From: Larinioides sclopetarius
Lineage: Eukaryota
Length of the DNA stretch: 64,000 bases
Direction of reading: 5' to 3'
Assembly (NCBI GenBank): GCA_964023285.1
Contig: CAXIEN010000093.1
Location: forward strand, 2,247,739-2,311,738
In this document: in pieces, positions 27,621 to 61,215 of the stretch
Layout: each line of letters starts with the position of its first letter
Numbering within the stretch: the stretch's first letter is position 1
Notes under the pieces: model-generated
What the model was told of the DNA's origin: nothing
The model's database searches: none
The model's input: only the letters and a program-made list of their open reading frames with translations
Program-made: the position numbers and the translations under genes

Positions 27621-27720
<100 letters not shown>

Positions 27721-29276: not shown

Positions 29277-30055
29277 AGAAGAGTTGTTTATTAATCAAAC
29301 AATCACAATGAGTTATAGAAGTCTTACTCTGATTATCTCCGACATATAAATCATTTTATTCAAACATCCCAAGACTTCTAGTTTCATCGTAAATTGAGTA
29401 TATTGAACAGTTAAGTTCTTTACATGCCATGATTGCGTAAAAACAAAGATTCTCAAATATAAAAAAATTAAGATTATGAAAATTCTGAACGAGAGCACAA
29501 TCCTTCATGCTGCTTATATATATTCTAAGGAAAATAGAAGAGTTGTTTATTAATCAAACAATCACAATGAGTTATAGAAGTCTTACTCTGATTATCTCCG
29601 ACATATAAATCATTTTATTCAAACATCCCAAGACTTCTAGTTTCATCGTAAATTGAGTATATTGAACAGTTAAGTTCTTTACATGCCATGATTGCGTAAA
29701 AACAAAGATTCTCAAATATAAAAAATTAAGATTATGAAAATTCTGCACGAGAGCACAATCCTTCATGCTGCTTATATATATTCTAAGGAAAATAGAAGAG
29801 TTGTTTATTAAGCAACCAATCACAAAGAGTTAAAGAGTTATAGTTACAGAAATGTTACTCTAATTAACCTCTCACACATAATTCATTTTATTTAAACATC
29901 TCAAGACCTCTACGTATCATTGTAAGTTGAGTATATTAAATAGTTAAGCTCTTTACATGATCGCGTAAAAACAAAGATTCTCAAATACAAAAAAATGGAG
30001 ATTATGAAAATTCTGTACGAGAGCACAATCCTTCATGCTGCACGTATATATTCTT
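29277..30055. repeat. Tandem triplication of a roughly 259 bp unit that derives from the 3' end of the agrin FS exon plus its flanking intron; unit starts at about 29277, 29536 and 29794
   Basis: Units 1 and 2 are near-identical. Unit 3 (29794-30055) is more diverged and contains the real end of the exon. On the minus strand each unit reads '...(Y)(V/I)(Q/S)(H/S)(E/M)(G/K)(L/D)C(S/A)...' followed by GTACAG / GTTCAG / GTGCAG. ORFs 29313..29498(-) and 29572..29823(-) are translations of these pseudo-exon ends. Confidence 0.8.
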
Positions 30056-30234
30056 CTTTTTACGACATGAATCGACTCGCATCTGGCATTCGGTGTTGTA
30101 ATTCAAGCCGTCGCTTCCACATACAGGGTTGTAATGTTCTTTACAATTTGTTGGACATCGACACACGGCTCGACGGCTTTCTTCAAAGCAATCGCCATTA
30201 AATTTGCAGTGTTTCTTCTCACAAGGTTCTGAAA
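30019..30234 (-). CDS. AGRN-like: Agrin-like exon encoding one follistatin-like plus Kazal (FS) domain: (E)PCEKKHCKFNGDCFEESRRAVCRCPTNCKEHYNPVCGSDGLNYNTECQMRVDSCRKKKNIYVQHEGLCS
   Basis: Ten cysteines fit the FS-domain pattern, C-x4-C-x5-C-x8-C-x-C followed by Kazal C-x7-C(GSDG..Y.NEC)-x6-C-x13-C, and the core motif PVCGSDG is present. Minus-strand acceptor (t)8cag|AA enters in phase 1, compatible with the phase-1 donor of the NtA exon at 60801. A probable donor C|GTACAG lies near 30019. Boundaries are good to about ±3 nt. Confidence 0.8.
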
Positions 30235-31779
30235 AAAAACACAAAGAAACGGCATTAATATCAATGCGGTGCACGAAAATTGACACCAATACAATTTAAA
30301 CAAACTAATTGACCTCTTGAATACGAATGTGACACCCATTTTGCCCCATCACGCACCGTTTTCTCAGGAAACCCCCAACAAATTTTTATCACTGCTCGGT
30401 AATTTTATAGGCATGATTTTGATTCGAAAGAAGAGAAAGGATTATTTTAAATTTTAGTGATTTTTTTTAATTTAAGAGGCAAATCCCTCTAAATCTCCCT
30501 CTTGCTATAAATGTTCATGCTTTAGAACTTTTCACCTCTGCAGCCTGGCAGAAGACATATTATGGTTAAAATAATTATCCCCTTAACCTCTCTAAATCAA
30601 ATTTATTGTCCTAAAATTACCAAACAGTGGTAAAAATAGGGATGGAACGATAAAACGGTGGGTGATTAGAAAAAAGGGAGTCATTTTTGGATTTAGGAAG
30701 TAATTTTACATAAGAATCAGCAGAAATGATACATGGTTCGAAATTTTCTTTTCTTTTGTAGCGCATTGTATTTAAACAGGACAAAATGAAATAGATTTCT
30801 TCAGGACAAAGTTCGAAGAATATCGGATTTTAAATTATTTTGCGTTTTTTCCTCAAATGATATTTTTATTTAACTAGGGAAATAAATTTAATTCATAAAA
30901 ATAAATTTAATTCATGAAATTCCAAATTGCAGTCAGATAAGCGAGATATTAATCAATACTATGATCAAATTGAATAAATTTTAAAAGAAAATATAAAGGT
31001 TTAAAAAGGTGAGATGAAAATATCAGATTTGGCTTGACACAAGCGCGATGTCTAAAGAAAAAACTTAACAGAATTTCTCTAATCTTCTGATAAGATTTTG
31101 CTAATATAAGTAGATTTTTTAGAAAACTAAAATCGTCAACTCGATTATTTCTTGCATTGTTTTCCACAAAGTTGAATTAATTTGGTCTAAATTGTCAAAT
31201 GTGAACATAAATTCCATGGACTAATGCAATTCACTAAATTTCCATATACTCCTTATTTGCCTAAAGGGACGATAGATACGATGATGATCTGAGTCTTAAA
31301 TTTATTTTAGATATTCCTTTTAGTCAAAATAGTTTAGAAAAATGTTTACATCGAAGGAATCACTTTACTTTCAGTGCATTTTGGAAAATCTTTGCTTTTG
31401 AAAAACATGACGAATATAGATAGCAGAGTTTTGAAGACATGTTTTACGAAACTGCATAAATATTTTCTTAAGAAAGGGCAGAAAGTACCAAGATCCCCAA
31501 TCTTAAATTTCACGAGATGCATTTCATATTATAGTGCTATGTTACTAAAAGGAAAATTTTGTTCTCAAAATGCATGGTTAAAATCAAAACGGCTTGATGA
31601 TATGACTCTTTGAAACAAAACGCCATAGAAACATTTGAGCGTGCAGATGTGTGCATGTGCATTTGAGGGATTATTAAATACTTTTATTTAACTTGACTTG
31701 TCTCACTTTTGAAATTCATATAGAAATTACCCCGACCTAGCCGAAGCTGACCGAAATATCTCAGTGATATATAGTTGGA

Positions 31780-32135
31780 GTGCTGAGGCCTGATCCTAAT
31801 GGCCATGATCCAATCCCTCCCGTAGACTTGCACTATCACCCGCAGAGTGCAAGCCCAAAACCATTATTGTATCCTCCCGGAAAGTGGGACCCCACGTACT
31901 TGTTCGGCGGCTTCTCATTTACATATAAACTACTCATATACATCACGTTTGCAAAGATGGAATTTTATAATCGATTTTTCACTCACTTCCCTTACGTGCT
32001 AGAGTTTTGGAAATCTTTGCACGCTTGCATATTCTCAGAGACAATGCACTATTTTAATATGTCCCGAGCAGTGGCGGTTGATGCAAAATCACCAGAGGCC
32101 TGCTACAGCGTAAAGTTCTACATGGCATACTGATG
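31780..32135. repeat. Fragment of a dispersed repeat family; the ORF 31780..32133 is probably TE-derived and non-functional
   Basis: Its 5' part, 'tgaggcctgatcctaatggccatgatccaatccctcccg', resembles 28340-28395 ('...cagccacggcccaatccctcccgaagg'). Its 3' part, 'agatggaattttataatcgatttttcactcacttcccttacgtgctagagtt', resembles 902-960 ('agatggaattttgtaatcgacgtttaatttacttcttgatgtgctagagtt'). Confidence 0.45.
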
Positions 32136-32469
32136 ATTTCTGCATACCTTTATATATAATTTAGGAACTAATTTTCAATAACTTAAAACATCTACCAAAT
32201 GAAATAATTATCCATAATATTTTTTTACTTCAAATTATTAAAATGGAGAAATTTTATATATATAATTCAGAAATTATTGATTTTTAAATAACAATAAAAA
32301 AATTTTTTTAATGATTTTCACAGTTATATTTTTGCTACGTCTAGTATTTTCTTACATTTCATTCAGAGCAGCTAAAACAGGCTCTAGAACAGTTAACTCT
32401 ATATATAAAACTCAGCGTTTGTGTATGTATAAAAATATGATTGTTCTAGCATAAATTCCGAACAGCTCA

Positions 32470-33720
32470 ACAAATTAAGATGAAACTTGGCACACTGGTT
32501 CCTTATAACTCATCTTGAGGTATAGGGTATGTGGATAAGGGTAGGGGTAACAAATTGATTAAATGCCAAATTTGGCGATTTTTGTAAAATTTTGTACACG
32601 TAAATTTAAAGTACTGTAGGTGTAAATAAGCTCAAACCCAGGCCCTAAGGGCAGGTTGGTCCAAAAAACCCCGAATACATGTGACAAAGAGGTCGGTCGA
32701 CATAGTTCGCAATTTTGATGGAATTTGACATACAGAATCCTTATTAGAAGACATGTATGAGTAAATAGGCCTTATCAAAATCCCTCCAGGCTGGGTGGGT
32801 CGACTCCCCACAAAAAAACATATAAAAATAGGTCAGTTAGTATTCTTCACGGTTTTGATGAAAGTCGGTAACAGAATTCTCATTAGCTGACATGCATTAA
32901 TAAAAAGACCTTAACAAAATCCTCCAGGGCAGGGTTGGTCTAATTACTCAATTACAAGTAAAAAGTAGGCTGGTTGGCTACTTTACAATTTTAATGAAAT
33001 TCAGTACACAAAATCTTCATTAGCCGACTTCTGTAAGAAAATAGGCCTTAATCAAATCCTTTAGGGCAGGGTTGGACTACCCTCCCTAATACATGTAAAA
33101 AATAGGCCAATTGACATTCTTTGATTTGAATGAAATTCGGTGCACAGAATCTTTATTAGTCGGCTTGTATGAGAGCAAACAGGCCTTAATAAAATCCCTC
33201 AAGGAAAAATCGGCCTAATTCCTAAATACATGCAACAAAAAGGCCGATTCGTATGTTTCGTGATTCTTATGAAACTTGGTGCATAGAGTCTTCATTAGCC
33301 GACTTATATGAGAAAACAGACCTTAATAAAATCCCTCAATTAAAGGTGCGCCTAATCCCCAAATACATGCAGCAAACAGGCCGGTTTGCAAGTTCCATGA
33401 TTCTGATGAAATTCGGTACACAGAATCCTCATTAGCCGATATTTGTAACTCAATAGGCCTAAACAAAATCCCTTAGGGCAGCGTTGTCTTAATTCCCCAA
33501 ATACATGTAAAAAATAGGAATGCTGACATTCTTCGAGATTTTAATGAAATTTGGTACTCAAAATCTTCATTAGCTCTAACTTGTATAAATAAATAAACCT
33601 TAAAAACCCATCAAGAGAGGTGCCCTAATCCCTCAAATACATGTGACAAATAGACCGGTTGGCATGCGTCGCGATTTTGAAGAAATTCGGTACGCAGATT
33701 CCTCATTATGCACATTTAAA
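32470..33720. repeat. Intronic satellite array, unit about 137 bp, 8-9 diverged units
   Basis: Each unit carries 'aatccct(c)(c/t)agg(c)(a/t)ggg(t)tgg(t/g)c...atacatgt(g/a)a(c)aaa(a)ataggcc(g/a)(g/a)t...(c)ttc...gattttgatgaaat(t)cggta(c)a(c)agaatc(c)t(c)attagc(c)gac'. Unit starts were read at about 32644, 32781, 32909, 33054, 33192, 33329, 33466 and 33600. Confidence 0.8.
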
Positions 33721-36700
33721 ATATAAAGGCATTTGCACGAATACCACAAGTAGCATCAATACCACAAATAGGTTGAAGCAAAAGCACAATACGATTGATC
33801 CGAAACTTGATCCTGCTGGAATGGCTTTGTTAAAACTTTGTATGAATATTCATTTATAACCAACATAAAGTAATGTGAGGGGGAGTAAGTATACTATAAG
33901 GCATCCTTCAAGGTAAGTTTGGGGCAACGTCTCTTAAAAACAAATAAAACACAAATTGATTGAAATGAAGCCTAATTTGCAGGTTACAGCATATCGAACT
34001 GAAAAAAGGAGAAGTTAAATCTCTTTTAATCAGTTCTTTAGATGATAACTATCGATAGGATAAGGTGAAATGTTTATTTAGAACAGCTGTTGCAATTTTG
34101 GTTAAACATCTCCATTAATTAATTTAGGCATGTTAATTCCAACTTTGCTCATCAACAATAAGGATAGAAATGGTTTCTAAGAGGCGTTCTTCTGGGCTGA
34201 GTGGAAGTCAGCTATGGAAATATATCGAGCCAATGACTAATTAGCATGAAAGTCTTATTAATAGGGTTCCTAAAAAAAGTGTTTCCCCCAAACTGATGAA
34301 TAATGCAAGGGGAATTTGTAATATTGCCTACTATGATATATTTAAAAGGAATTATATTCTTGTACTATTTATTTATGGATATTTTTATAAAAATATTGAT
34401 TCTCGCAATAAATTTTTTTTTATAAATAGTTAGTTACTAACAATAATTCAGAAATCGGTCTTACACTCATTTTTAACTTTAAAAAAATCGTGCAATGCCG
34501 GGTATTCTGCTAGTATATTTGATATTCTTTAAAAAATTGTGTTTCTTTCAGTTTCCTCCTTAGGTAGAGCTTCTTTATGATCAAAAATATATTTTACAGA
34601 AGAATATCTGGGTTGCTTAAATTTTGAAAATCCGTTCTTTTCAGACATAATTGCTTTTAGAAGTAAAATTTATTGGAAAAAAACACTGAATGCAAAAAGA
34701 AAAAAAAATTAACTCAAATTTATGTTTGATTTTTCAAAACTACCTTTTAATTGATTGTTCTTTCTTTTCCTTTATAATTAATTATCAAAATTATTTATTT
34801 TCTAATTACAAACCGGTGAAAAAAACGACCTTTAATGATAGTCATTAAAACTATTCCCAACTCTTATTCCATATCTTTTGAAACAACATTTCCTATAGTT
34901 TTCTAATTTAAATACTTTAATGAGAAAAAAAATCACATTACAATTGCGCATGCTCGTTTATCAGCAGACGTTATAAGAGGATTTTATAGTTCCCGAGCTT
35001 GGGGAATCTATCTGAGAAGATAACGGGTAGGGAAAATTTCTCTGAAGTAAACTTGGAAGAAAATCTAGCTTTTCGGCCTAGCTAAAAACTTCATATGTGA
35101 GTTTTAATGATGTATTTGATTATTCCAAGCAAAACTAAATGAATAAGTGATTAAATTTATACACTAAAAATTGTTGGGGGGGGTACAGATACACAGCTCT
35201 CGGTTCAGAGCATAAAAACATTTTGGTCTCATGTCAACGGCAACATCTGGAAGTAAATTTGAGAAAATTTTGATATCAATCTTTCATAGTATTTATAATT
35301 AAGAATTATAAAATAAAGGCAAAGAACTAACAAATAAGTAAATTAAAATGCATCTACCATTTAGTTTACCGATAAAAACGTCTTAAACGAAATGTTATCT
35401 AATTTATTCTTGTTAAAATTGAAACATCCCGATCTAATCTAATTCAGTGTGAAATTATCTGATCATTTTAAACATTTGCACCAAAACCATAGTGAAGTCC
35501 TGAAAGTTAATGTTAATGGATACAAAATCTCACGAAAACATATTAACCCCTCCAAAATTGATAAATTTTCAAAAAGTTATCGTTGATTCCTGTCTTTCAT
35601 ACGAAAGATGTTAAGCTCACCTACATTAATGTCTCCTTTTGAAGCTACCCGAGAGTTATATTAAGATGAATCTCGTAACCTTGAACTATGACGCGGATGG
35701 TATCTGAGTCAGTACTCTTCACACTGAGCCACACAAAACTGAGAACGTCTGACTCCCAGTCACAAATTTAATGAACACCAGCCTGACCATACAAGATGAA
35801 TCTTTTATAGAATACACACCTCGATCACACAAATTCAAGCTGTTGCCTACGGGAAAACCGGCAACTTTTGCTTTTAATTTATATATTACATAGTACTTCA
35901 TGGAACTACAGAAGGTTTTCACATCTTCAGTTTCAGTATAAGTTGAAAGATTGGTTAATTTCACCAGTGTTATATATCAAAATATCTTGTGTCAAGTTTG
36001 CCAAAACATTTTGCTTATGCAAAGACCTTGCATAGGTTACTTACATTTGCTTTAAAATTGTCGTATGCTGTCACAAAATGCTGTAGGTCGCTATTGATTT
36101 CAGCTGCTGTTTCAAAATGTCGTATGTTTAGCTATACATGGTTTTTGACATACGACATTGTGATACAACAGAAAGGGGACGTGAAGTATAAGCCGATACA
36201 TATTATATACTAAATAAAAAAATAAGTGAGGTTTTAAAATAGTTCAGATGCATTGTGCGGCTGTATAACACGCAATGGACAAGTCGCATCTGTGCAAGTG
36301 ATTCTATTATAAACTATGTTTATAATACCAATATTAAAATAACTACAAAGTAAAATTAAATTCGGAGGAAAAAATAACTCCGTTTTCTAAATTTTTTTTA
36401 AGGCAAAACTTGAAAATAATCGTTAGAAATTTCTTCTTTAAACTGTTTATGTGTAATTAGTAAGGAGTTTTTATCTATAGTAAAATCTCAAAAAGTAAAA
36501 ATTATTTTATAATTCCTTTTATAACCTCAAAATTGAATCAAAGAAAATTTCAATGGGTCGACATTTGGACTTCAAAATCTGGTTAACTGGTGGTATATAC
36601 TTGCTAAAAATTGTGTATAGGAGTTTTAGAATACATATTGGCTTTATAATTAAAGCACAAAATAAACAATGCTATGCTTTTGGTTCAGCCAAGGTAGCGA

Positions 36701-37665
36701 AAAAATGTAGCTGTTCTCAAATGTGGACGCTGGGCGTTATGGGTTAAATTCATTCATAAAAGTGAAATTTCTGCAAATAAACCCTAGGTGAACAGTTTCT
36801 ACAAACGAATAATTAATATCTAAGTTTGAATTACTTTAAAAAGTAAATAAAAACTGATAGATTATAATATATTTAATTTCAATGTTTAATTATAAAATTA
36901 ATCATACACTGTGCAATATAAAGAATACTGATAAAGTAATAAAAAGCTAACTTTGAAATTTGATTTGTATTAAATTTAACTAATTTAAAAGCTGAGATTG
37001 TTTCATTAAATTTCCTTAGAAAAAACTGCCTGCATATTTCCTTATATAAAACTGTAGCAAAAAAATGATTTTAATAATACAATCATTAAATTATTCAGCA
37101 TTAATTTAAAAGAGGAAAAACTTTAAATAATGCAACATGCACATTCCCCTGTAGTTTAAGAATGACAAATAGGATCCTAAAGAATTAGGGAAAATATCAA
37201 ATTTTTCGCAAGGATTTTCTCGTGTATTTTACTAAATAATTCCAGGAAATCTCTCCATTGGAACGAAATATATTTTCTATCCTTTTCCTAAGTTTCTGAA
37301 ACTACTTGCCATTTCGCCAGACTAAATATTTTGAAAAAATCATTCATTTTTTGTCGAGCTATTTCCCTACGCAATTCGTAATAAGAATGAAAGAGCATTC
37401 GCTTGTTTTTAACACGTTTAAGTGCCCTTCGTGGCCTCAGGGGACCTACATTCAACTTTTAGTTTAGTGGTTCAAGAAAAATGCTCTCCTGTGGACTGAT
37501 ATGAGTGTATTGTTTAAGGAAAATGTAATAATATATTATTTCCAAGCAAAGGCCATTGACTCCAGAAAGAATTTTGTCCGTCTTCAATTTTTGGCGACTA
37601 GTTACTTTAAATAAACAGTATTCAAGATAGTGTAAAATAGCTTAGATTATTGCTGTTATTTCTTC

Positions 37666-38490
37666 TCCAAGAATTTTAACGAAAAATTTGGATTTGAGAT
37701 TCTAATTCAGCTGGATCCAAAAATGATAACAGCACAGATGTTGAAATGAAAGGATGATGAATCATAAATATATATTCGAATTAAAAATTAATTTCAACAT
37801 TCAAGTCAAAAATACATTGTAAAACTTATCGTATCTTTTAGTTTAGATTTTTAGAAATCATAGCGGAAATAGTATTATTATTGAAATCTTAACACCACTC
37901 ATCCATCTTTAGAGTTCGCCGTCGGTATGGCGTGGAAGAAAATTCTCCAAGAATTTTAACGAAAAATTTGGATTTGACATTCTAATTCAGCTGGATCCAA
38001 AAATGATAACAGCACAGATGTTGAAATGAAAGGATGATGAATCATAAATATATATTCGAATTAAAAATTAATTTCAACATTCAAGTCAAAAATACATTGT
38101 AAAACTTATCGTATCTTTTAGTTTAGATTTTTAGAAATCATAGCGGAAATAGTATTATTATTGAAATCTTAACACCACTCATCCATCTTTAGAGTTCGCC
38201 GTCGGTATGGCGTGGAAGAAAATTCTCCAAGAATTTTAACGAAAAATTTGGATTTGACATTCTAATTCAGCTGGATCCAAAAATGATAACAGCACAGATG
38301 TTGAAATGAAAGGATGATGAATCATAAATATATATTCGAATTAAAAATTAATTTCAACATTCAAGTCAAAAATACATTGTAAAACTTATCGTATCTTTTA
38401 GTTTAGATTTTTAGAAATCATAGCTGAAATAGTATTATTATTGAAATCTTAACACCACTCATCCATCTTTAGAGTTCGCCGTCGGTATGG
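37666..38490. repeat. Tandem array of about 270 bp, three near-identical units
   Basis: 'ttctccaagaattttaacgaaaaatttggatttga(g/c)attctaattcagctggatccaaaaatgataacagcacagatgttgaaatgaaagg...gagttcgccgtcggtatggcgtggaag' is repeated at 37666, 37936 and 38222, with more than 97% identity between units. Confidence 0.9.
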
Positions 38491-38494
38491 CGTG

Positions 38495-38645
38495 GAAGTT
38501 TAGAGAAGAGGGTGCCGACTTAGGTGTCGTCCTTGTCATCTGACCACTGTTTAAAATTACGAGTCCGTCCCTAAATAGCCCTCGTGTTTCTTCTAAAGGG
38601 ACGTTAATATAACCTAACCTGACTTTAAGTCCGCATGTCTTCTAT
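38495..38645 (+). mobile_element. SINE-like short interspersed element, about 150 bp (family 3), copy 1, abutting the 270-bp tandem array
   Basis: Shares 'ggaag(t)ttaRagaag...gg(t)g(t/c)cgtc...tcatYtga...aaaattacNagtc...aaatagcc.tc.tgtt.cttctaaa.gggac.ttaatataac.taa' with copies at 40690 and 53075. Confidence 0.55.
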
Positions 38646-38719
38646 CCGGTTCCCTGTATACCTTCTCATCCATTTATGATTTATGCTATTAATGACCATC
38701 CACACACATTGATGCTCAC

Positions 38720-39452
38720 AAAAAATAAATACACAAAAATCTCTATTAATAACAAATATTAATAAATAAACTACAGGATTTTATCCCTTTTTTAATTGAT
38801 TAATTTTTCAGTGAAATCTCTAAAGAAAGTCCTCAAGATAGTAAATGCATTAGGAAATAATCCATAAACAATATTGATTGTTATGTTTTAATTTTTTATC
38901 AGCATGTTTTACACCAATCAGCAAGCTGCTGGACATAAAATCTGGCTCGCCATTTTATTGTTGTAATCAAATGCATATTTTGCATTCGGAATAAGAAATT
39001 AAATTTGATGCCAAAAACCTGTAAATAGATGTTACATGATAGAAACAATTCCCCACCGGTCTGCTCCAGGTATTACGGATCCTGGCGCGAAAAATAAATA
39101 CATAAAAATCTCTACTAATAATAAATATTAATGAATATAGAACAGGAAATTTTATCTCTTTTTTAATTGATTAATTTTTCTGTGAAATCCCTAAAGAAAG
39201 TCCTCAAGATAGTAAATGCATTAGGAAATAATCCATAAACAATATTGATTGTTATGTTTTAATTTTTTATCAGCATGTTTTACACCAATCAGCAAGCTGC
39301 TGGATGGTGATCTGGCTGTTTATTGTTGTAATCAAATGCATATTTTGCATTAGGAATAAGAAATTCAATTTGGTGCCAAAAACCTGCAAATAGATGTTAC
39401 ATGATAGGAACAATTCCCCACCGGTCTGCTCCAGGTATTACGGATCCTGGCG
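38720..39452. repeat. Tandem duplication, unit about 365 bp, two units
   Basis: 'aaaataaatacaYaaaaatctctaNtaataaYaaatattaatRaat...tttacaccaatcagcaagctgctgga...caattccccaccggtctgctccaggtattacggatcctggcg' is repeated from about 38722 and about 39087. Confidence 0.85.
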
Positions 39453-40689
39453 GGAAGCTCGTGGTGGTTTGGGTCTTGAACACGGACAGTTACTTAAATC
39501 CATTAGGAACGTTCTTGTACACCGGCACCAGAACAGGTTCATGGCCATGAAAAGGATGCAGGTTAAATATCTATCGGTATTTGAAGCTTAACAATTACTT
39601 TAAAGGAAACATGAATATCAAAATAATAATACATAAAATTTTCAGTTGAAATCATGTTCTCTGTGAACAAGCTGGTCGCCAAAAACGGCAAGTAAGAAAG
39701 AAAGATAACAACATTAAAAAATTTCCTGGAGCTGAAAACTTGTGACAACCCTAGAAAAATAAAATTTATTTATATAAAAATTGAATTCATATATCTTGCT
39801 ATTTTAAACTTTTATTCTCCGAGAGCTGGCTGGATAAATTTCAATGACTCAAAGGATAAAAACAATAATTTATGACTGGATTAGGAATACAAACTCTGCT
39901 ACAGAAAAAAATATTATTGATTCCTCTGACTCGGAGAATGAAATGAATTTATATTCAAAGAAAGGATCAAAACATTTACTTAGGACTGAAACAGCGTTAC
40001 AAGTTCTACTATTGAAAAATATTCCAAGACTATGTTTCGGATAACAGGATAAACTTATGTTTACAGAATTAATCAAAACATCAATTTATGATGGTATTCG
40101 GAATAAAAATATCACTAAATAATGACTTAATTACGAAATTTCATGTTGTGCTTTTGTCGACAGTAAGTACTACAGAGTATATATTATGCATTTTCATATT
40201 ATGTGTAATAATTATACTTAAATATATTGAATTTTTTGTTTTTGTAGAGATTTTATGATTTGTTAGAATGAAAACAATGTTAAGAAATATGAATTAAATT
40301 TGCAACCAGTTCGACTTACGATCTGGAAGTCGAAACGGAACTCGGTCTTTGTCTAGAATAATCTATAGATATAAATGAATTTCATTATTAGGAAAGGAGG
40401 ATATTTCCATCAAAGTTTAATTCCTCGTTCAAGACAATACTTTAAATTGCATATGATTTCCCCACTCAAAAGAATTCTCTGTTTGTTTGTTTTTTAATTT
40501 AAGACTATTTTGAATTTAAATAAACATATTAAATCTATTAAGGATTTGATTGCTAGGCTGTAAAAATTTTCCGTTTTGATCAAATCGAAAATTTGTAAAA
40601 TACAAACTTTTAAAAACCACAAAAATGGCAGACATTTGTAAGGTTGAGAACTCCCCCAAAGTTGAGGGATCCTCCTGCTAGTGTGGAGA

Positions 40690-45113: not shown

Positions 45114-45131
45114 TTTTTTTTTTTTTTTTTT
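45114..45131. repeat. Poly(T) of 18 nt, preceded by (CT)n
   Basis: Direct reading. Confidence 0.9.
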
Positions 45132-50419: not shown

Positions 50420-51406
50420 ACTAGTATGATTTATCCATCACAAAACTTTCTTCTATATAATTATATAATTGAAGCCGGGAAATACTAAAAACAAATATTA
50501 AAAAATGTATGAAAGAATTGAAATAGCAGCGCCACCTGTCGAGCGATCTACACAAAAATTTTATCAACAATAATTTAAGTCAAGACAAAACTAAATATAA
50601 AATTTCATGAAATTTCTCCAATAGTTTTTTATGTAGAGTGGATACAAAAAAAACATGAAAAAACGGAATAGCATCGCCACCTGTTGAGCGATCTACGCCA
50701 AAATCTAATCAGCACTAATTTATGTTAAAATACAACTAAATATGAAATTTCATAAAATCCTGTCCAATAGTTTTTGCGCCAGCGCGTCCACAAAATTTCG
50801 GTTACATACACCACACAGACAGACATTTTCTAAAAATAGTGAAATCGTGTTCAGGAGCCCCCAAAACGTGTAGATCCATCAAAAAACGGAGGTCGAAAAT
50901 TTTCGCGATTCCAATACTTTCTTCTTATAGAAGAAAGTAACAAATATTGAAAAATTTATGAATAAATTGAAAAACCAGCGCCACCTATCAAGCGATCTAC
51001 ACAAAAATTTTATCAACAATAATTTAAGTCAAGACAAAACTAAATGTAAAATTTCATAAAATTTCTCTCATTAGTTTTTGATCTAGAGTGGGTACGAAAA
51101 AACGTGATAAAAACGGAATAGCAGCGCCACCTGTTGAGCGATCTACTCCAAAATCTAATCAGCACCAATTTATGTTAAAATACAACTAAATATCAAATTT
51201 CATAAAATTCGGTCAAGTAGTTTTTGCGCTAGCGCGCCCACAAAATTTCGGTTACATACACCACACAGACAGACAGACAGACGGACAGACATTTTCTAAA
51301 AATAGTGAAATCGTGTTCAGGAGCCCCCAAAACGTGTAGATCCATCAAAAAACGGAGGACGAAAATGTTTGCGATTCCAATACTTTCTTCTTATAGAAGA
51401 AAGTAA
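50420..51406 (+). mobile_element. Two head-to-tail family-F1 elements (50420..50940 full length; 50941..51406 lacking the first roughly 60 bp)
   Basis: Same head ('actagtatgat.tatccatcacaaaactttcttctatata'), internal duplicated 'acggaatagcagcgccacctgttgagcgatctac' modules, (GACA)n and 'tactttcttcttatagaagaaagtaa' tail as the 17.7-19.2 kb cluster. Confidence 0.8.
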
Positions 51407-52063
51407 AAAAACGTTTTAACTCATTTTATTGTGTGTGCCGAAAAATATTTCTTGTAAATTTTTCTTAGTAATTTTCTTTATCTACATGTAATGGGATCAA
51501 TTCATGCTCATATAATAGATGAAAATTAAAAAGCGCCAGTTCAAATTTTGGATCCACTGCGCATTGTGCGATTGCTGCTCGTAGCGTTCAGAATAATTCT
51601 TTTGCTGATAATTCTGAACTATTCATTTTTACTTACAAATTTTATTTTATAAGTTAATTCTAGTTTTTTCCTTTAAAAGTAAATTCTTAAAGATTTGCGT
51701 TTTTAACAACACAGCTTATGTTTTTAGCAACGCAATATTATTAAGTTGTAACTGAAAAACTTTTCGTAAGACAGATGTCTTTTGTTTTATAGTAAAAAAA
51801 AGCAAAGAATAATGCATTATTTTTGCTCAAAAAATATGCGGAAAATGTTAACATACACAGAGTCAGGGCATAGTGTAAAATGTGATATGATAGACCCCTG
51901 CACATTGTGTCTTACAATGCAACATTTATAGTAACATGTTTAGATAATATTCGCAATTACATTGTAATATGACCGTAGCGTCACATGAATTTACACCATT
52001 CTATATTTAAATAGAATTTCCAGGGTCTGAGAACTTTGAAGATTTCATTGCCCGCTTCTATTT

Positions 52064-53050
52064 TTACTTTCTCGTATAGAGAAAGTATTGTAATCGTCAA
52101 AAAATCCGAACTCGAGATTTTGACAAATCTCCACGTTTTAGACCTCCCTGAGTCCAAAAAAACACAATTTTAGAATTATGTCTGTCTGTGTGTGTGTCTG
52201 TCTGTCTGTCTGTGAACACGATAATTCAAATACTATTATAGCTACGAAACTGAAATTTGGTAAGTGGTCTTTTTTCATGATTTGTAAGATTCTATCAAAT
52301 TTTGGGCAACATTCGCCGACAGGAAGTATGTCTGTCTGTCTGTGTGTCCGCGTTCATGTGAACTCAATAACTCAAAAACTTCAAGAGCTATATAGATAAG
52401 ATTTGATACACAGTTTTCTCATCATAAATTCCTGTCCGTATAACATTTTGGGCCTAATCCGTCTAATGGTTGACCGTCAGGCGGTCTGTATAATCCACTA
52501 TTTTCAAAATTTATAACTCTTAAACCCTTTGGTCTACATCTATATAATTTAGTATGACGTATGCTAATAAAAATTGTAAACGTATGCAAAAATTTCGCCC
52601 CATTCGATTAAGTAGAAGGGGTATAATTCATTAACCAAATTTATAATACGCAACTGCATACGCGCGTTTCCGTAGCAGCTGCACCAAGGTCACGGGCTCG
52701 CGGCACGAAACAACGCAACGTCGCAGAAGGCTGTTTACTCGGTTCTCCTTGCGCGTCAAAAAGTGGCGCTGCTTTTTATCCCTTTGTTCGTCAGCATTCT
52801 CGGGTGTTTTGTTCTTGCTTTTTGGTAGTTAATTTAATTATGACCATGGATTGATTTTTAGATAGTGAAATTATTATTATTATTAAAGTGAAAATGACGT
52901 TTCGCGCATAGAGCAGATTCAAAATTTTTGTCAGGTTTATAGCTTTCACAGTCGGTGGATTTTTTTTTATCAACGATGGAGGAGAGGAAACAGAGAATAA
53001 TTCAGGGGAACTATACGAGAAAGTTTAGGGAAGGCCACTCCCACTGGTTG
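52064..53050 (+). mobile_element. Family-F2 element / left arm of a large inverted repeat. It consists of a tail module ('tactttctcgtatagagaaagta...(GACA)n') at its 5' end, an AT-rich body with a second (GACA)n, a GC-rich segment (about 52650-52800) and an ATG-containing end segment
   Basis: Inverted homology to 56697..57584. The tail module is homologous to the F1 3' tail. ORF 52178..52399 ('SVCVCVCLSVC') is a microsatellite artefact. Confidence 0.75.
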
Positions 53051-53074
53051 AAGTAAGTATGATCCTTCCCCTAG

Positions 53075-53225
53075 CAAATGTTGGAATTTGGAGAGAGAGA
53101 TACGAGTTCAGGTGTCGTCCTCGTCATCTGTTGGCGGTTCATTATTACGAGGTCCATCTCAAAATACTCCTCGTGTTGCTGAGAAGTGTAACGTTAGTAT
53201 AAACTTAAGTATTTTATACCTGAGA
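53075..53225 (+). mobile_element. SINE-like element of about 150 bp, family 3, copy 3, in the core of the large inverted repeat
   Basis: 'caggtgtcgtcctcgtcatctgttggcggttcattattacgaggtccatctcaaaatactcctcgtgttgctgagaagtgtaacgttagtataaac' is homologous to the 38495 and 40690 copies. Confidence 0.5.
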
Positions 53226-53559
53226 ACATTTGAATTCCTTGAAGGATTTGAAGATCCCATGCACATACTCATAAAGTGAGTGGAAATGTCCAGTTTAGTT
53301 CATATAATCGTCATACATGTTACATGTATAATTGCTTAAAACGATTTAAAATTGGCAGATCAGGACCGCTTGCTATCACATTTTGAAGTGACAGAACAGG
53401 TTACATATTTTTATAAGTTTTTTTTTTGCTATAGGGGAAAAAATTATTTTTAAATTATTACATTTTTTAAAGTATAAGTCATCAACTTCTAACGATATTT
53501 TATTTTTTGGTTAGATGCAAAAGAGGGCTTTTAAAGAAGTGGTGGGTGGAAGGCTACAT

Positions 53560-54290
53560 TTTTACTTTCTTCTATATGTATAAAAGAAGAAAGTATTGAA
53601 TCGCGAAAATTTTCGACTTCCTCGATTTTTAATGGATTTACACGTTTTGGGAGGTCATGAACACGATTTGACTATTTTTAGAAATGTCTGTCTGTCTGTG
53701 ACACAAATTTTGTAGCCATGATACTGAACAGAATTTCATGAAATTTTATATTTAGTTGCGTAGTTATATTAATTAGCATAAATTGATGCTGATTAGATTT
53801 TGGAATGGATCGTTTAACAGATGGCGCAACTATTCCGTTTGTTTCAAGATTTTTTAGTAATTTTGTATCTGTTCTAGATAAAAAAATTAATTTATAGAAT
53901 TTCATAACATTTAAGGTTTCATAGCAACATCACAGAAATTACTACTGATTAGATTTTTGTGCAGATTGGATTTTTTGTAGGGCGCTGTTATTCCGCTTTA
54001 TCTCCTCCGCGATTCTCGCGAAATATTGCGGCCGCTCTAGAGGAAAAACTAATGGGCCCAATTTCATGAAATTTTACTTTAGTTTTACCCTATCATAAAC
54101 TGATGCTAATTAGAATTTGGTGCAAATCACTCGGTTTTCCTGGGGTTCTTTTTGGATTTTTTTTCATGAATTCCGCGAAATTTCGCAATTTGTGTGATTA
54201 GAATATCTCGGTTTCTATGATTTAAAATTCCATACAATCTCTACAATATGAAGTTACATTGATTCAATTGTTATGCATGTTTCTCAATAG
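53560..54290 (-). mobile_element. Family-F1 element in reverse orientation, with the tail at 53560-53700
   Basis: 'tactttcttctatatgtataaaagaagaaagtattgaatcgcgaaaattttcgacttcctcg...gtctgtctgtctgtg' is the reverse complement of the F1 tail, followed by the reverse-complemented 'tgattagattttgg...gcgcaactattccgtt' modules. Confidence 0.65.
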
Positions 54291-54659
54291 GGGCTCTGCT
54301 AGGCCTTTTTATAATTTTTGTTATAAGCATTTCTCTGTTTTTCTTAAAAAGCATAGCTTCAACATTTCTTAAAATAGAAGAAAAATTTTGATTCAGTTTA
54401 TTAATATGCTTTAGATAAAATTAAGCGTTATATCTATAGACTCTGATGGATCTCAATTATATACAATATAGATGTGTGATGGCCACATCATACTACTTTC
54501 ACTTTCCGAAGAGACTTTTCTTATACAGTTACTAAGACTCTGTAGAGACAGGTGTTTTTTCGAAAATCTTAAGTCGCGATAGGTAATGTTGTTAATAAGA
54601 AAGGAAATTATTGCTTAAATATGGATTCAAGTAGAAATTTTTTTTCAAAATATGCTCCC

Positions 54660-55196
54660 AACAAAAAATGATGTGGCCATCACAAAACTTTCTTCTATAT
54701 AATTATATGATTGAAACCGAGATATACTAAAAACAAATATTGAAAAATTTATGAAAAAAATGAAATAGCAGCGTCACCTGTCAAGCGATCTGCACAAAAG
54801 TTTTATGAATATTAATTTAATATTAATTTAAGTCAAGACAAAACCAAATATAAAATTTCATAAAATTTCTCCCATTAGTTTTTGATGTAGAGTGGATACA
54901 AAAAATCGTGAAAAAACGGAATAGCAGCGCCACCTGCTGAGAGATCTACACCAAAATCTAACCAGCACCAATTTATGTTAAAATGCAACTAAATATGAAA
55001 TTTCATAAAATTCTATCCAGTAGTTTTTGCGCTAGCGCGCCCACAAGATTTGCGTAGACAGACATTTTCTAAAAATAGTGAAATCGTGTTCAGGACCCCC
55101 CCACCCCCCAAAAAAAACGTGTAAATCAATCAAAAAACGGAGGTTGAAAATTTTCGTGATTCCAATACTTTCTTCTTATAGAAGAAAGTAAAAACG
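54660..55196 (+). mobile_element. Family-F1 element in forward orientation. A short inverted copy of the F1 head also lies at about 54468-54495
   Basis: 'gatgtggccatcacaaaactttcttctatataattatatgattgaaaccgagatatactaaaaacaaatattg...ccaatactttcttcttatagaagaaagtaa'. Confidence 0.75.
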
Positions 55197-56696
55197 TAGT
55201 TCGACTATTTCAAAAGAGAGATGTTTAAAATTAAAAGAAATCCTCTGGGTCGAAGATTTATTGAAAAACTATTAAAATGCTCAGTACTAACTTTAAACAA
55301 TAATGCAAATACTTATTTGAATTTTGAAAACATCAAATAATAAAACGATCATCGTTTTTTCTCCATCGTCTTCTTGTCTTTACATATCGTCTAACGCAGA
55401 ACATGCTGCATAATTCTTAGAAAAAAAAGCAATTATCAAAAGAAAAATAGAGAAATCTTAGAAAAATAGATGAAGCTTGATTCTTTTCAAATAACTACAT
55501 GGATAAAAGATCAATTTAGTATCATCAAAAAGGAGGAAGAAATCATAAAACATTGTTTAAAGTATCTATAAAGTTTATCTATGGAATTTATATATGATTG
55601 TTGATGGTTTTTAATATAACGGCAAAAGTAAATTAAAGAGAGTGGAGGAAAATGTTAAGATCAGCTCCATATATACTAACTGGAACAAATTTTACCTTAA
55701 ATCTTTAATTATGAAAGAACATTTCTTTACTCACAATGCCATAAATCAAAAGAACTGCATCAAGACAAAGCAAGCAATCCCAATCCACAATTAATTTTCT
55801 GAAAATAATAGAATATGAAATGGGACATACTAAGATTGCATGTACCCTTCATTGATATTCCAGCTCAATCTGCTGTTGCATCAATCACAGATTTCTACGC
55901 TTTTGAACTTTTAAAAAGCACCTTATACAAATGTTGACATAACAACCCTTTGTGGACTTTGGAAAGCTTTTCAGCGACAAAATACCCTTCCCAATACAAG
56001 AACAAGTATTATTATCATAGAAATGACGATGTAAAATTATAATAATAAGATTGATTCAACTAAACATTTAAAACAAAAAAATTGTTCTGCAAATACCAAA
56101 AAAAAAAATCAAAAATGTGCTAACAGCCTCTGTACAAATAATTTGAAGTAACCTTACGTTGTTTAATATTTTTTTAAAAAAAACAGAATAAGACATTAAA
56201 ATAATTGCAATCCGCTTGCCGTCCCATCCACGGGGTAAGTGTCACTAGCAACTGATGTTATCATTTGCTCTACTGTGACGGCACATCATTTCTTATCCTG
56301 CAATTCCCACAAAAGAATATAATGTGTAGCTCTTAGAATCGCATAAGCCGCTCGTTATGGGGACTGTTTCACGTCGGACGTTTTTTTTATCGCGGCGGCC
56401 GGTCTTGCAACATGTCTGGGATGCTTCAGCAAGGACTGGATTATTTTATTGATTCTTCTCATGCAAGCAGAGCTTTAGATTTTGAAAGTGGGGCTTCCTG
56501 ATTGGCAAACATGGCGTGAATGCACGAAATGATTCCATAATAAATAATATTTTAAAAATTTATAATACTTCTCAATAAACACAGAAGGTGTTTTTTTCTA
56601 AAAAGAATATTTAATATTCTTTCTCCTTCTTTCACTGTCTTTCTTTCTAAAATAAAGGAATGTAATTCAACGCGCATTTTATTTAGCAACCAGTGG

Positions 56697-57584
56697 AAGT
56701 GGCCTTCCCTAAACTTTCTCGTATAGTTCCCCTGAATTATTCCTCGTTTCCTATCCTCCATCGTTGATAAGAAAAATAAAAAATCCACCGACTGTGAAAA
56801 CTATATACCTGACAAGAATTTTGAATCTGCTTTATGCGCGAAAAGTCATTTTCACGTAATTAAAATAATACAACCGCTAGCAGAATTCCCCAAAAAAGAA
56901 AAACGGAACCAAAGCGGAAGTAGAAACAAACTAGGAATTCCTAATTGCAAACCTTTTTTGCTTGCTTACAAAACAACGTTTTCCGCATGCATGCGTATAA
57001 TAAATTTGGTTAGTGAATTATACCCCTTCTATTTAATCGAATGGGGCGAAATTTTTACACACGTTTACAATTTTCATTAGCATAAGTCATACTAAATTTT
57101 ATAGATGTAGACCAAAGGGTTTAAGAGTTATAAATTTTGCAAATATGGGATTATACAGACCGCCTGACGGTCAACCCTGTGACGGATTTGGCCCAAAATT
57201 TTATACGGACAGGCATTTATGATGAGAAAACTGTGTATCAAATTTTATCTATCTAGCTATTGAAGTTTTTGAGTTATTGAGTTCACATGAACGCGGACAG
57301 ACAGACAGACATACTTCCCGTACGCGGATGTTGCCCAAAATTTGATCATTTCTTACAAATCATGTAAAAAGACCACATACCAAATTCCAGCTTTGTAGCT
57401 ATAATAGTTTTTGAGTTATCGTGTTCACAGACAGACAGACAGACACACAGACAGACAGACAGACATAATTCCAAAATTGTGTTTTTCGGACTCAGGGAGG
57501 TCTAAAACGTGGAGATTCGTCAAAATCTCGAGTTCGAATTTTTTGACGATTACTATACTTTCTCTATACGAGAAAGTAAAAAGC
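56697..57584 (-). mobile_element. Family-F2 element / right arm of the large inverted repeat, the reverse complement of 52064..53050 except for a substituted roughly 120-bp segment at 56870-56990
   Basis: 56697-56780 is the reverse complement of 52965-53050. 56990-57430 is the reverse complement of 52200-52640. The tail 'cagacagacagacaga...gattactatactttctctatacgagaaagtaaaaag' is at 57428-57584. Confidence 0.75.
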
Positions 57585-58208
57585 AATCCATGGTCATAAT
57601 TAAATTAACAGCCAAAACGCAAGAAGAAAACACCCGAGAATGCTGACGAATGGGATAAAAAGCAGCGAAACTTTTGGACGCGCAAGGAGAACCGAATCAA
57701 CAGCCTTCTGCGACGTTGCGTTGTTTCGCGCCGCGAGCACGTGACCTTGGTGTAGCTACAGCGGAAACGCGTGTATGTAGTTGCGTATTATAAATTTGGT
57801 TAATGAATTATACCCCTTCTACTTGATCGAATGGGACGAAATTTTTACACACGTTTACAATTTTTATTAGCATAAGTCATACTAAATTTTATAGATGTAG
57901 ACCAAAGGGTTTAAGAGTTATAAATTTTGCAAATATGGGATTATACAGACCGCCTGACGGTCAACCCTGTGACGGATTTGGCCCAAAATTTTATACGCAC
58001 AGGCATTCATGATGAGAAAACTGTGTATCAAATTTTATTTATCTATCTATAGAAGTTTTTGAGTTCACATGAACGCGGACAGACAGACAGACATACTTCC
58101 CGTAGGCGGATGTTGCCCAAAATTTGATAGAATCTTACAAATAATGTAAAAAGACCACATACCAAATTTTAGCTTCGTAGCTATAATAGTTTTTGAGTTA
58201 TCGTGTTC

Positions 58209-58245
<37 letters not shown>

Positions 58246-58797
58246 ATTCCAATTAATCGAATTGGGCGAAATTTTAACACACGTTTACAATTTTTATTAG
58301 CATAAGTCATACTAAATTTTATAGTTATAGACCAAAGGGTTTAAGAGTTATAAGGGTTGCAAATATGGGATTATACAGACCGCCTGACGGTTAACCCTGT
58401 GACGGATTTGACCCAAAATTTTATACGGACAGGCATTTATGATGACAAAACTGTGTATCAAATTTTATCTATCTAGCTATTAAAGTTTTTGAGTTATTGA
58501 ATTCACATGAATTCGGACAGACGGACAGACATACTTCCCGTAGGCGGATGTTGCCCAAAATTTGATCATTTCTTACAAATCATGTCAAAAGACCACATAC
58601 CAAATTTCAGCTTCGTAGCTATAATAGTTTTTGAGTTATCGTGTTCACAGACAGACAGACAGACACACAGACAGACAGACATAATTCCAAAAATGTGTTT
58701 TTCGGACTCAGGGGGGTCCAAAACGTGGAGATTCGTCAAAATCTCGAGTTCGAATTTTTTGACGATTACTATACTTTCTCTATACGAGAAAGTAAAA
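57585..58797 (-). mobile_element. Tandem head-to-tail continuation of F2 units: the GC-rich segment (57590-57790, reverse complement of 52650-52860), then two further partial F2 bodies (57790-58250 without tail; 58250-58797 with tail), each with two (GACA)n tracts
   Basis: 'ttataaatttggtta(a/g)tgaattataccccttct...gtttaagagttataaattttgcaaatatgggattatacagaccgcctgacggtcaaccctgtgacgg' recurs at 56985, 57787 and 58300. ORFs 57411..57599, 58065..58310 and 58507..58863 are (GACA)n artefacts ('QTDRQTD', 'VCLSVC'). Confidence 0.7.
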
Positions 58798-59817
58798 AGA
58801 AAAGAAATTAATAGGTTAAAAGATTTTAAGAACTATTATAATTGTTTTAGTATTATTTTCTAATAGAGTTCATTGTGCAAGGGTTTACTGCGTTTCAAGG
58901 ATCATTACATTTCAACATATGTTACTTAAGTCCGTTATTGCGTAAATGATTAAGAATCTTTCTTCCCTCTAAGGAGATACGAATATCCACAAATTGCATA
59001 AGTTGCGCCAGCTTCTTGCGCTGCTGCTTTCCTCCAATAAAACAGTAGGTTTTAGAATAAAATTAGTGCATGATTAGCAGTTAATCCACAAATGGAGGAA
59101 ATTCTAATAAACTTTCTGCACATGTAATATGAAGAACAAACCAAACAACTGTCAAAAATTATCATAAAAAAACGCTCCCATTTTTTTTAGTATTTTCTAA
59201 GTATTTTTATGTTTTTTTCTTCCAATCTTAGTATTTTGTCAGCTTAGCCAAATCTTACCCTTACTCCATCAAAAGCAAGAATCCAATTTATAACGTATTT
59301 TTGTAAAATATTTACTCAAATTCGAATGAAAGCGAATAAAAATTCTAGTAACGTAGCAGATCTGTATGTAACTCATTTTTCCCCCTTACCTTACGCTTTT
59401 ATTCTTCGCGATACTGTAATATCTTCGTGAAAATACTGAAAAATGCATCATACAGACATAAAAATGATAAACTTAAAAAAATGAGATGAAATGTTATTTA
59501 TGTTATGTTAGACTTTCGGTACAAAATGCTATATTCTGAGGCTGTCGTCTTGGTCGTGTGGGAGGGGGGGGGACATGTTACTTTATTTCCACTGAAGTAT
59601 TCACTCTACTGCTTCAAAAGTTATCGGCCTAATTATACAAAACAGTTTAATCTGTGAGTGCCTTCAGTGTATATATTATGTAATAGGAAGAAGTAAATAA
59701 ATGTAATTGTTGAAGTTATAAATTCCAATACAAATTTTCTGGAATTTAGCCTTTATAAGTTAATCTATCGTTTATAAAAAAAAATCGACCAACAATCATA
59801 TGGAATTGAATATGGTT

Positions 59818-59822
<5 letters not shown>

Positions 59823-59849
<27 letters not shown>

Positions 59850-59850
59850 T
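59823..59850. repeat. (TA)n microsatellite
   Basis: Direct reading. Confidence 0.9.
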
Positions 59851-60800
59851 AATAATAATAATTAATAGCATATTCACTAATATGTCTCGTCAACAAAAAA
59901 TCAGTTTAAAAATTATTTAAAAAAAAGAGATAAAATGTATTTAAATATCATAATAATTATTGCAACTTTTCGGTGTAAATCTGATTTCTACAAATGTTAT
60001 CGCTTAAAACTTTTTAGTGTTTTGATATCTTTATTCCATGAAGTGAATTTTCATTTTTATTTGTTTATAAATTATTTCACATACAAATATATGAAGACAT
60101 TTACATGTCTTTTTATTTCATAGAAAAGACGTTTTTATATTAATTAAAAATTATTAGTAAATTAACACTGATAGAGTCATTTTTCATGCATTTGGAAAAT
60201 ATTTTATATTCATATACATCAAGTAGATTCTTTCGAGGTTTACCATCATGCAAATAAATGAATGAATTTTAAAACTATTTTTCTACTGTTTTAAAAAATT
60301 AAAATCTTTCTATTAATTTAGTATTTGTAACACAGGAAATTTTTCTAGAGTGATAATTCAAATTTTATATAAAAATAGAATGAAAATAAAAGATATACAA
60401 AAATGCGTTATGTGATATAGGAGAAAATATTTTTGATTATTTAAAAAAAACTCTTTCATATATTTCCAATTTTTTTTATTATGGCATACAAATCTAATAC
60501 ATATAACAATATATTAAATAAATGGCCGATTTGTTTAGTGAATTCAAAAAGAATCTTGTAATCAGAACATTGCTAATTGGCTAATGATTGTTAATAAAAT
60601 CATCTGTATTTCAAATCTAGAAACCTTTTTGATATCTATAGTTCTTTTCATGCATCTTATCTCTTAGAGAAATTTAAAATATTTTATTTTTCTTTCTGTC
60701 CGGTACAAGGAACCAATGTCTCGTTAATAATCAACATACAAATTTTTAAGTTTAGCTAAATTTACAATGCATTATTCTAAGTAATAAAGCAATCTCTTAC

Positions 60801-61215
60801 CTTTCACAGTCGCCGTTATTTTATCCAAATTTGGTGCATTAATTCGGACCATGCTAGAGTTAAGTCTGAATCTTCCCGTTTCTAACTGGCTTAGAAGGAA
60901 TATTTTTGAATCTCTTACTATAACCTTACTAGTACAAATATCAGAATTGCCGAAACCTTCCACAAGAAGCGATTCACCAGGTCTCAAATGATCACCTTTC
61001 ACCACCCTCTTCACCAGCACTTCACCACTGTATAAACCCTCTTGGCCACCGTATAGTCGCCTGACAGTACCAGTAAGTACAACATCTGCCATATTTTCCC
61101 TCACTTTCAATCTTTCTTCTGGGCATTCTCTAAATCGTCTGCGACGTGCTTCAACCAAGCTGAGCTGGAAAACGATTACCCCAAGTAACAACAAACACAA
61201 TTTGTATGAACCCAT
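60801..61215 (-). CDS. AGRN-like: Agrin-like exon 1, with the start codon at 61215. It encodes a signal peptide (MGSYKLCLLLLGVIVFQLSLVEA) and an NtA (N-terminal agrin, laminin-binding) domain
   Basis: The translation RECPEERLKVRENMADVVLTGTVRRLYGG...YSGEVLVKRVVKG...GFGNSDICTSKVIVRDSKIFLL...FRLNSSMVRINAPNLDKITATVK aligns block-by-block, from memory, with chick/human agrin NtA (CPERELQRREEEANVVLTGTV...YSCKVRVWRYLKG...[22 protein letters not shown]...LMLNSSLMRITLRNLEEV). Start-codon context is caagATGG. The donor G|GTAAGA is at 60801/60800, in phase 1. Confidence 0.85.

Follow-up and report, generated by a model that had tools for sequence, protein, structure and literature searches.

A short agrin-like gene of three exons in the spider Larinioides sclopetarius

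Does a spider locus that encodes an agrin-type NtA domain and a follistatin/Kazal (FS) domain mark the 5′ end of a full-length agrin, or is it a gene in its own right? The question is raised by a stretch of 64 kb (the window) on contig CAXIEN010000093.1 of the araneid spider Larinioides sclopetarius, which we searched throughout. The gene lies on its minus strand, with ∼30 kb of the window downstream. An earlier sequence-only reading of this DNA had described the start of an agrin orthologue, with a signal peptide and NtA exon, a single intron of ∼30 kb and an FS exon from which the gene would continue past position 30019. We find instead three coding exons spanning 31.2 kb from ATG to stop, and a gene that is complete. 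That this is a full gene of a short chelicerate agrin-like family is, in our judgement, very probable, a confidence that covers the gene model and the family assignment and not the mechanism. We call it a short agrin-like gene, a stand-alone agrin head, and do not term it an agrin orthologue.

Joined together, exons A, B and C (61215-60801, 41296-41261 and 30228-30002) give 678 nucleotides (nt) and a product of 225 amino acids (aa), identical at 225/225 residues to the annotated L. sclopetarius protein P0001. The sequence-only reading had guessed at a non-insect arthropod, and the spider origin of this identical protein bears it out. The parts of the gene are as follows, a slash marking each splice junction.

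61348..61500, minus strand: conserved 5′ flank (promoter or 5′ untranslated region), 130-290 nt upstream of the ATG
60801..61215, minus strand: exon A, 415 nt from the ATG, encoding signal peptide, RRRR and NtA (C31...K138); donor G/GTAAGA, phase 1
61215..61147, minus strand: predicted signal peptide, codons 1-23, with the hydrophobic leader MGSYKLCLLLLGVIVFQLSLVEA; putative cleavage site
41297..60800, minus strand: intron 1, 19,504 nt, repeat-rich
41261..41296, minus strand: exon B, a 36-nt micro-exon encoding the basic, proline-rich linker (G)IPYRRRPPIND(E), that is GIPYRRRPPIND; acceptor ttctttAG/G, donor G/GTAAAT, phase 1/1
30229..41260, minus strand: intron 2, 11,032 nt, repeat-rich
30002..30228, minus strand: coding part of exon C, encoding the FS domain (FOLN-like sub-domain and Kazal, C153-C219) and the tail SRTEFS; stop TAA at 30004..30002
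29887..30001, minus strand: proximal 3′ untranslated region (3′UTR), ending with the first AATAAA (29892..29887), which lies 109 nt past the stop

The signal peptide and NtA exon at 61215..60801 stand as first read, and so does the phase-1 arithmetic of the introns. P0001 differs from the earlier two-exon model solely in the 12 residues GIPYRRRPPIND between NtA and FS and in the tail RTEFS. The 12 residues come from exon B, which splits the supposed single intron into two of 19,504 and 11,032 nt; the direct NtA-FS splice first proposed is indeed in frame but omits a micro-exon that is included in all homologous proteins, transcripts and loci examined. This exon is the sole candidate between exons A and C in a splice-aware scan (YAG/G...G/GTRA, open in phase 1), and the same scan recovers the orthologous 36-nt exon, with AG/GTAA sites, in four other spider loci (Parasteatoda, Uloborus, Caerostris and Oedothorax), where the same three exons lie within 6.4-14.9 kb. 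Exon C, previously placed at ∼30234..30019, begins at 30228 behind a polypyrimidine tract and an AG at 30230-30229. Past 30019 its frame reads TCT CGT ACA GAA TTT TCA TAA and reaches the stop five codons on.

At the other end, an in-frame stop precedes the ATG of exon A at ∼61288. The flank at 61348-61500 has an equivalent at the matching position of the Caerostris darwini orthologue (L007 9662-9812), to which it is 73% identical over 154 nt; this conservation suggests that coding begins with exon A, with a promoter nearby. The sequence-only reading had seen no alternative transmembrane first exon, and neither did we: no intronic open reading frame (ORF) is conserved among the five spider loci apart from repeats, a comparison that left out hydrophobicity because AT-rich introns yield many chance hydrophobic ORFs.

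The short form is widespread. Our initial homology search matched spider proteins throughout, all of 220-232 aa, and homologues of 210-246 aa with the order NtA, linker, FS, stop occur across chelicerates, in spiders, horseshoe crabs, ticks, mites and a pseudoscorpion. They include Limulus (XP_013778652.1, 230 aa), two Tachypleus paralogues of 230 aa each, the tick Ornithodoros (XP_064460157.1, 225 aa), the pseudoscorpion Cordylochernes (210 aa), the tick Haemaphysalis and the mite Halotydeus, both with the short NtA-FS architecture, and the basal spider Liphistius thaleban (P0008), whose protein is deposited as U21-Liphistoxin-Lth1a_1. When the NtA part was used for an exhaustive profile search, 287 proteins matched with E<=1e-3. 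Several of their clusters at 50% identity consist of the short NtA-FS-stop form, and few long proteins are among the matches (oyster, hemichordate, Trichinella and vertebrate-like). Seventeen of 19 family members end 1-13 residues past the last cysteine, and the remaining two, which are mite-type gene predictions, carry tails of 25 and 50 residues. Intron-less transcript contigs from other spiders (L002, 947 nt; L003, 1370 nt) contain the whole ORF, of 225 and 223 aa respectively, with the stop at the same place, followed by an AT-rich 3′UTR of at least 176 nt in L002 and at least 661 nt in L003.

Both the NtA and the FS domain are well beyond a chance resemblance. Exon A scores 75.5 bits against Pfam PF03146 (E 3.8e-21; cut-off 25.1; model positions 1-115) and matches the chick NtA crystal chains with E about 2e-9. 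When the AlphaFold model was compared with known structures using Foldseek, the top four matches were chicken NtA structures (E about 2e-8, target-normalised TM 0.70, root-mean-square deviation 2.6-2.7 Å), with NTR/TIMP folds ranking after them. The modelled NtA core, at a predicted local distance difference test (pLDDT) score of ∼70-78, comprises five strands and a helix at residues 127-137, in agreement with an OB/NTR-type β-barrel with a C-terminal helix, in a model whose overall confidence is low. The laminin recognition motif of chick agrin consists of Leu142 and Val149 on helix H3, which carries the major laminin-binding epitope (PMC3439447). These two residues align with spider L130 and V137. 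Of the 19 family members, 18 have Leu at position 130, and 18 have an aliphatic residue (V/I/L/A) at position 137, where the remaining one has Thr. Conservation extends to the cysteines of the NtA disulfide and to the LNSS motif.

Two basic motifs accompany the domain. RRRR (codons 24-27, in the region 61147-61135) directly follows the predicted signal cleavage and is almost invariant in the short family, and the micro-exon encodes a second conserved motif, PYRRRP. Either could be a convertase site or a glycosaminoglycan-binding patch.

In exon C, the ten-cysteine pattern and the PVCGSDG motif that the sequence-only reading had recognised are both present. The cysteines (C153, C158, C164, C173, C175, C179, C187, C198, C205 and C219) are all invariant in the family. 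Kazal_2 reaches 40.8 bits against a cut-off of 22.8, and Kazal_1 is also above its cut-off. Residues 137-207 match the FS domains of follistatin and FSTL, and Protein Data Bank (PDB) matches of the FS part comprise follistatin (E 2e-7), FSTL1 (E 1e-6) and Kazal inhibitors, elastase and trypsin inhibitors included. The reactive loop is C179-KEHYNPV-C187, and from the classical Kazal spacing we take its P1 residue to be Glu181. Araneomorph spiders have Glu at this predicted P1, and the position differs from lineage to lineage (E, H, W, V, R, F, Y).

What might such a protein do? By analogy with vertebrate agrin, it would be secreted after removal of its cleavable-looking leader, and NtA would dock on the laminin coiled coil via the Leu/Val pair of its C-terminal helix. 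Docking would tether the single FS domain to basement membranes, where it could bind a soluble partner, either a TGF-β/BMP-type ligand or a protease. We regard this laminin-anchored FS module as a reasonable proposal whose chances fall somewhat short of even. The protein has no LG domains and therefore neither links laminin to dystroglycan nor supports agrin-type signalling.

An unlikely alternative, and the best placed of those we weighed, is that the protein is a secreted Kazal-type serine-protease inhibitor or a venom or gland component, with NtA as a carrier or TIMP-like module and no laminin anchor. The Kazal scores and the elastase/trypsin inhibitor matches agree with it, and the P1 residue, hypervariable in the reactive loop of classical Kazal inhibitors, is hypervariable between lineages here as well. 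Against this, conservation is strongest in the NtA core, the linker, the FOLN motif EPCEKK.C and the Leu/Val pair of helix H3, and not in the reactive loop; and inhibitors of trypsin- or chymotrypsin-like enzymes do not usually have Glu at P1, as araneomorph spiders do. TIMP-type inhibition needs Cys1 at the mature N terminus, where its free amino group can chelate the zinc of the active site. The predicted mature N terminus, RRRRFREC..., has its Cys as the eighth residue if the cleavage site is placed correctly, and lacks Cys1, which speaks against a TIMP/NTR metalloproteinase inhibitor. NtA does share the OB/NTR fold with N-TIMP (Foldseek; PMC3439447). As for venom, the toxin-style name of the Liphistius homologue, U21-Liphistoxin, hints at annotation as a putative toxin from a venom-gland source, but a transcriptome toxin name is no evidence of venom function, and the family is also found in non-venomous chelicerates, namely horseshoe crabs and mites.

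Less probable still is that the locus is the 5′ end of a full-length agrin, spliced at 30019 to FS, LamEGF and LamG exons beyond the window, with the 225-aa form at most an isoform made by intronic polyadenylation. The domain order is that of the agrin N terminus, human agrin is the best match among solved structures, long agrins exist in some arthropods (PMC2874008), and the introns here are very long, which makes distant exons conceivable. There is also a putative donor GT after the first base of an Arg codon, where the FS1 exon would end: the window, Caerostris, Uloborus and L003 all use CGT. Parasteatoda, Oedothorax and L002, however, encode the Arg by AGG or AGA and for that reason lack the GT, which leaves 3/7 spider sequences without it; to judge from these codons, it is the amino acid that is kept at this position and not the splice signal. 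The donor context, CTC/GTACAG, is also weak, and the chelicerate proteins, RefSeq models and transcript contigs all terminate here.

Nor did we find agrin-like exons farther on, either in the 30 kb downstream in the window or in the 10 kb downstream in the four other spiders. Over the 64 kb, Pfam searches of stretches free of stops, from 50 aa upwards on the minus strand and from 56 aa upwards on the plus strand, returned NtA and one Kazal domain alone, with no EGF, Laminin_EGF or Laminin_G on either strand. A hidden Markov model of the family FS domain, run with --max on stretches of at least 25 aa in the window, found one FS exon alone, exon C, which was likewise the only match in the whole window to bee agrin (1894 aa; sequence taken from Table S1 of PMC2874008) in a tblastn search with E<=10. 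No second FS exon was seen within 10 kb downstream at the four other spider loci; an extra FS match in Uloborus was discarded as due to chance, being 15 aa long, on the wrong strand and with E 0.97. Neither the reading frame, with its stop codon, nor these searches support the claim that the gene continues past 30019.

The genes beyond are unrelated and on the opposite strand, and one of them is syntenic. The downstream neighbour is an opposite-strand HlyIII gene in Parasteatoda and, in Oedothorax, an opposite-strand gene (L008 29.1-32.8 kb) with a 343-aa product. The window contains a counterpart of the latter:

3283-3675 and ∼6573-6954, plus strand: two exons of a neighbouring gene, 66% identical in amino acids (E 4e-41) to the Oedothorax downstream gene

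The locus is bounded downstream by this convergent neighbour, which is syntenic with Oedothorax. Its product belongs to no Pfam family in either the window or Oedothorax, and the WD40 and HlyIII neighbours of Parasteatoda are not in the window.

Nonsynonymous differences (pN) between the window gene and Parasteatoda, L002 and L003 amount to 0.14-0.16 per site against a saturated synonymous value (pS) of 0.77-0.85; a dN/dS ratio proper could not be computed because synonymous sites are saturated. The short gene is under purifying selection. The idea of a decaying relic left after loss of the remainder of agrin, which could appeal to the lack of all C-terminal agrin domains, to the repeat-rich, AT-rich surroundings and to the duplicated 3′ end, is effectively refuted by this conservation, by an architecture retained from horseshoe crabs to spiders, by the intact ORF and canonical splice sites, and by spliced transcripts in other species.

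How, then, does this gene relate to agrin? Among solved structures, human agrin matches best, over residues 30-242 and in a collinear alignment of NtA and FS1. Compared with the ten FS domains of bee agrin, the FS domain of exon C is closest to FS1 (blastp E 1e-14), and the alignment reaches into the micro-exon (spider PYRRRPPINDEPCEKKHC versus bee SYKQRPRTIEEPCEKTYC); exon B aligns with the linker that precedes FS1 in bee agrin, SYKQRPRTIEE, and the GIPY..PP linker after NtA is also found in long invertebrate agrins. On these alignments, exons A, B and C are the counterparts of the agrin NtA exon, linker and FS1. The features of a full-length agrin are present as far as NtA and an agrin-like FS1, whereas the multi-FS array, LamEGF, SEA and EGF/LamG, on which its roles as a proteoglycan and receptor ligand depend, are absent.

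Vertebrate secreted agrin (PDB 1JB3, 1JC7, 1PXU and 8S9P) has the same order of signal peptide, NtA, linker and FS1, and shares with the spider protein the NtA fold, the Cys pair, the LNSS glycosylation motif and the Leu/Val pair of helix H3. It differs in continuing with FS2-9, LamEGF, SEA, a Ser/Thr-rich region, EGF and LamG, where the spider protein ends after FS1. The spider NtA is also more compact (∼100 residues on a 115-position profile, with two loop deletions), and the spider protein, unlike vertebrate agrin, carries RRRR after its signal peptide. At the NtA/FS boundary the two are alike in having a tiny exon or insert, but the vertebrate insert is alternative and 7 residues long (PMC3439447), and the spider micro-exon is 12 residues long and apparently constitutive. 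The insect agrins of bee (Apis mellifera) and beetle (Tribolium castaneum) have an FS1 and linker homologous to those of the spider in a protein of ∼1900 residues (transmembrane segment, nine FS, two LamEGF, one FS and three EGF/LamG) that has a type II transmembrane start and no NtA, and Drosophila lacks agrin (Banyai et al. 2010, PMC2874008 and its Table S1); the spider protein, by contrast, has NtA and stops after FS1. In composition it has an engineered parallel, the recombinant NtA-Fs fragment studied biochemically (PMC3439447), which is essentially the same; such NtA-FS and mini-agrin constructs serve research on laminin binding and muscular dystrophy. Mini-agrin adds C-terminal LG domains that link laminin to dystroglycan (PMC2064083), and this dystroglycan-binding part has no equivalent in the spider protein. 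Follistatin FS, FSTL1 FK and Kazal inhibitors have the ten-cysteine FS pattern in common with the spider protein, but none has NtA, and the spider FS is closest to agrin FS1 and not to any of these.

A second family of NtA genes exists in spiders and a mite (P0025, P0227-P0233 and P0020), with loci in Argiope (L004 10001-10384) and Oedothorax (L005 10001-10399); Oedothorax has both families. It is known by its first exon alone, which encodes a signal peptide, RRRR, as in the short family, and NtA, and ends at the same VKG/K position. No micro-exon or FS exon was found within 10 kb downstream of it. This second family may head the true long arachnid agrin. A search for LG domains matched only pikachurin and perlecan-type arthropod proteins and also missed the known bee agrin, and is hence uninformative about a long chelicerate agrin. 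In a neighbour-joining tree of 148 NtA domains, which is not bootstrapped, the short family stands apart from the second NtA family and neither groups with the long agrins. Our literature search found no paper describing a chelicerate or spider agrin, a chelicerate NtA or short agrin-like proteins; the name Liphistoxin occurred once, in an unrelated review.

Several points weigh against our account of a complete short gene with a tethered FS module. The splice junctions and the poly(A) site in L. sclopetarius are deduced from protein identity and from other species. The downstream search reaches 30 kb, and a rare long isoform that uses the C/GT at 30019 and very distant exons is conceivable in the species with GT. 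With a second NtA family in spiders, the window gene need not be the one-to-one orthologue of agrin. The AlphaFold model of the whole protein is weak (mean pLDDT 51, FS part <35), with the NtA core alone usable, and the variability of the predicted P1 would fit a fast-evolving inhibitor and a non-inhibitory FS domain alike.

With these points in mind, we suggest tentatively, as one doubtful history, that duplication or fission at the 5′ end of an ancestral agrin gave rise to a stand-alone agrin-head gene, which purifying selection has kept since before the split of horseshoe crabs and arachnids. Its product would serve as a laminin-tethered FS module, acting as a trap for TGF-β/BMP or a protease or as a competitor for the laminin site of agrin, with recruitment to the venom gland possible in some spiders; insects would have kept only the NtA-less transmembrane agrin.

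The remainder of the window is rich in repeats. The sequence-only reading had called the intronic DNA repeat-filled, and indeed sequence that recurs elsewhere in the window makes up 35% of intron 1 and 24% of intron 2; intron 1 contains no Pfam domain on either strand. The tandem arrays and microsatellites are these:

57826-58675: tandem array in intron 1, 430 nt x2
37663-38498: tandem array in intron 2, 280 nt x3, 99% identical
32994-33439: tandem array in intron 2, 137 nt x3.2
5-326: tandem array at the start of the window, 73/145 nt
13422-13541, 14014-14064 and 27624-27719: (TA)n microsatellites

The 3′ end of the gene is itself triplicated in tandem (29254..30054, minus strand), in units of ∼259 nt that each hold the last ∼45 nt of coding sequence, the stop, ∼190 nt of 3′UTR and an AATAAA. 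Identity is 98% between the two distal copies and ∼85-89% between these and the genuine gene end; the AATAAA signals are evenly spaced, at 29892, 29619 and 29360. An interspersed repeat family links 50.4-58.8 kb with 17.7-19.2 kb (53555-54498 versus 18693-17707, 73%), and the copies at 57577-58252 and 52860-52170 are 90% identical. No transposase or reverse-transcriptase domain is recognisable in these interspersed repeats, which look like non-autonomous or decayed elements.

A non-coding block of 128 nt at 20431-20558, downstream of the gene, is 80% identical to a syntenic block in Caerostris darwini (L007 20367-20493), with a core of ∼45 nt that is nearly identical. The block matches no Rfam family, and neither of its strands folds significantly as RNA (z about 0); it is possibly a regulatory element. 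Rfam and tRNA scans of the window returned nothing, and a scan for bacterial promoters and terminators, irrelevant to a eukaryotic gene, did no better than shuffles.

All the parts of this protein are known domains, and its relatives are already in public databases, uncharacterised and under the automatic names agrin, agrin-like and U21-Liphistoxin. We therefore regard the locus as a moderate curiosity and not a surprise. The names agrin and agrin-like on proteins of 225 aa suggest a truncated proteoglycan of ∼2000 residues, when the short form is a real and conserved product. A chelicerate-wide NtA-FS1 mini-gene, together with the second spider NtA gene, adds an undescribed branch to the evolution of agrin and the basement membrane. 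The role of the N-terminal FS region of agrin is still poorly understood (PMC2874008), and a natural protein made of NtA and FS1 offers a clean system in which to test laminin anchoring and ligand binding by FS. If its origin as an agrin head is correct, the family would show the fate of the NtA module in arthropods and would allow the function of NtA-FS to be studied apart from the remainder of agrin.

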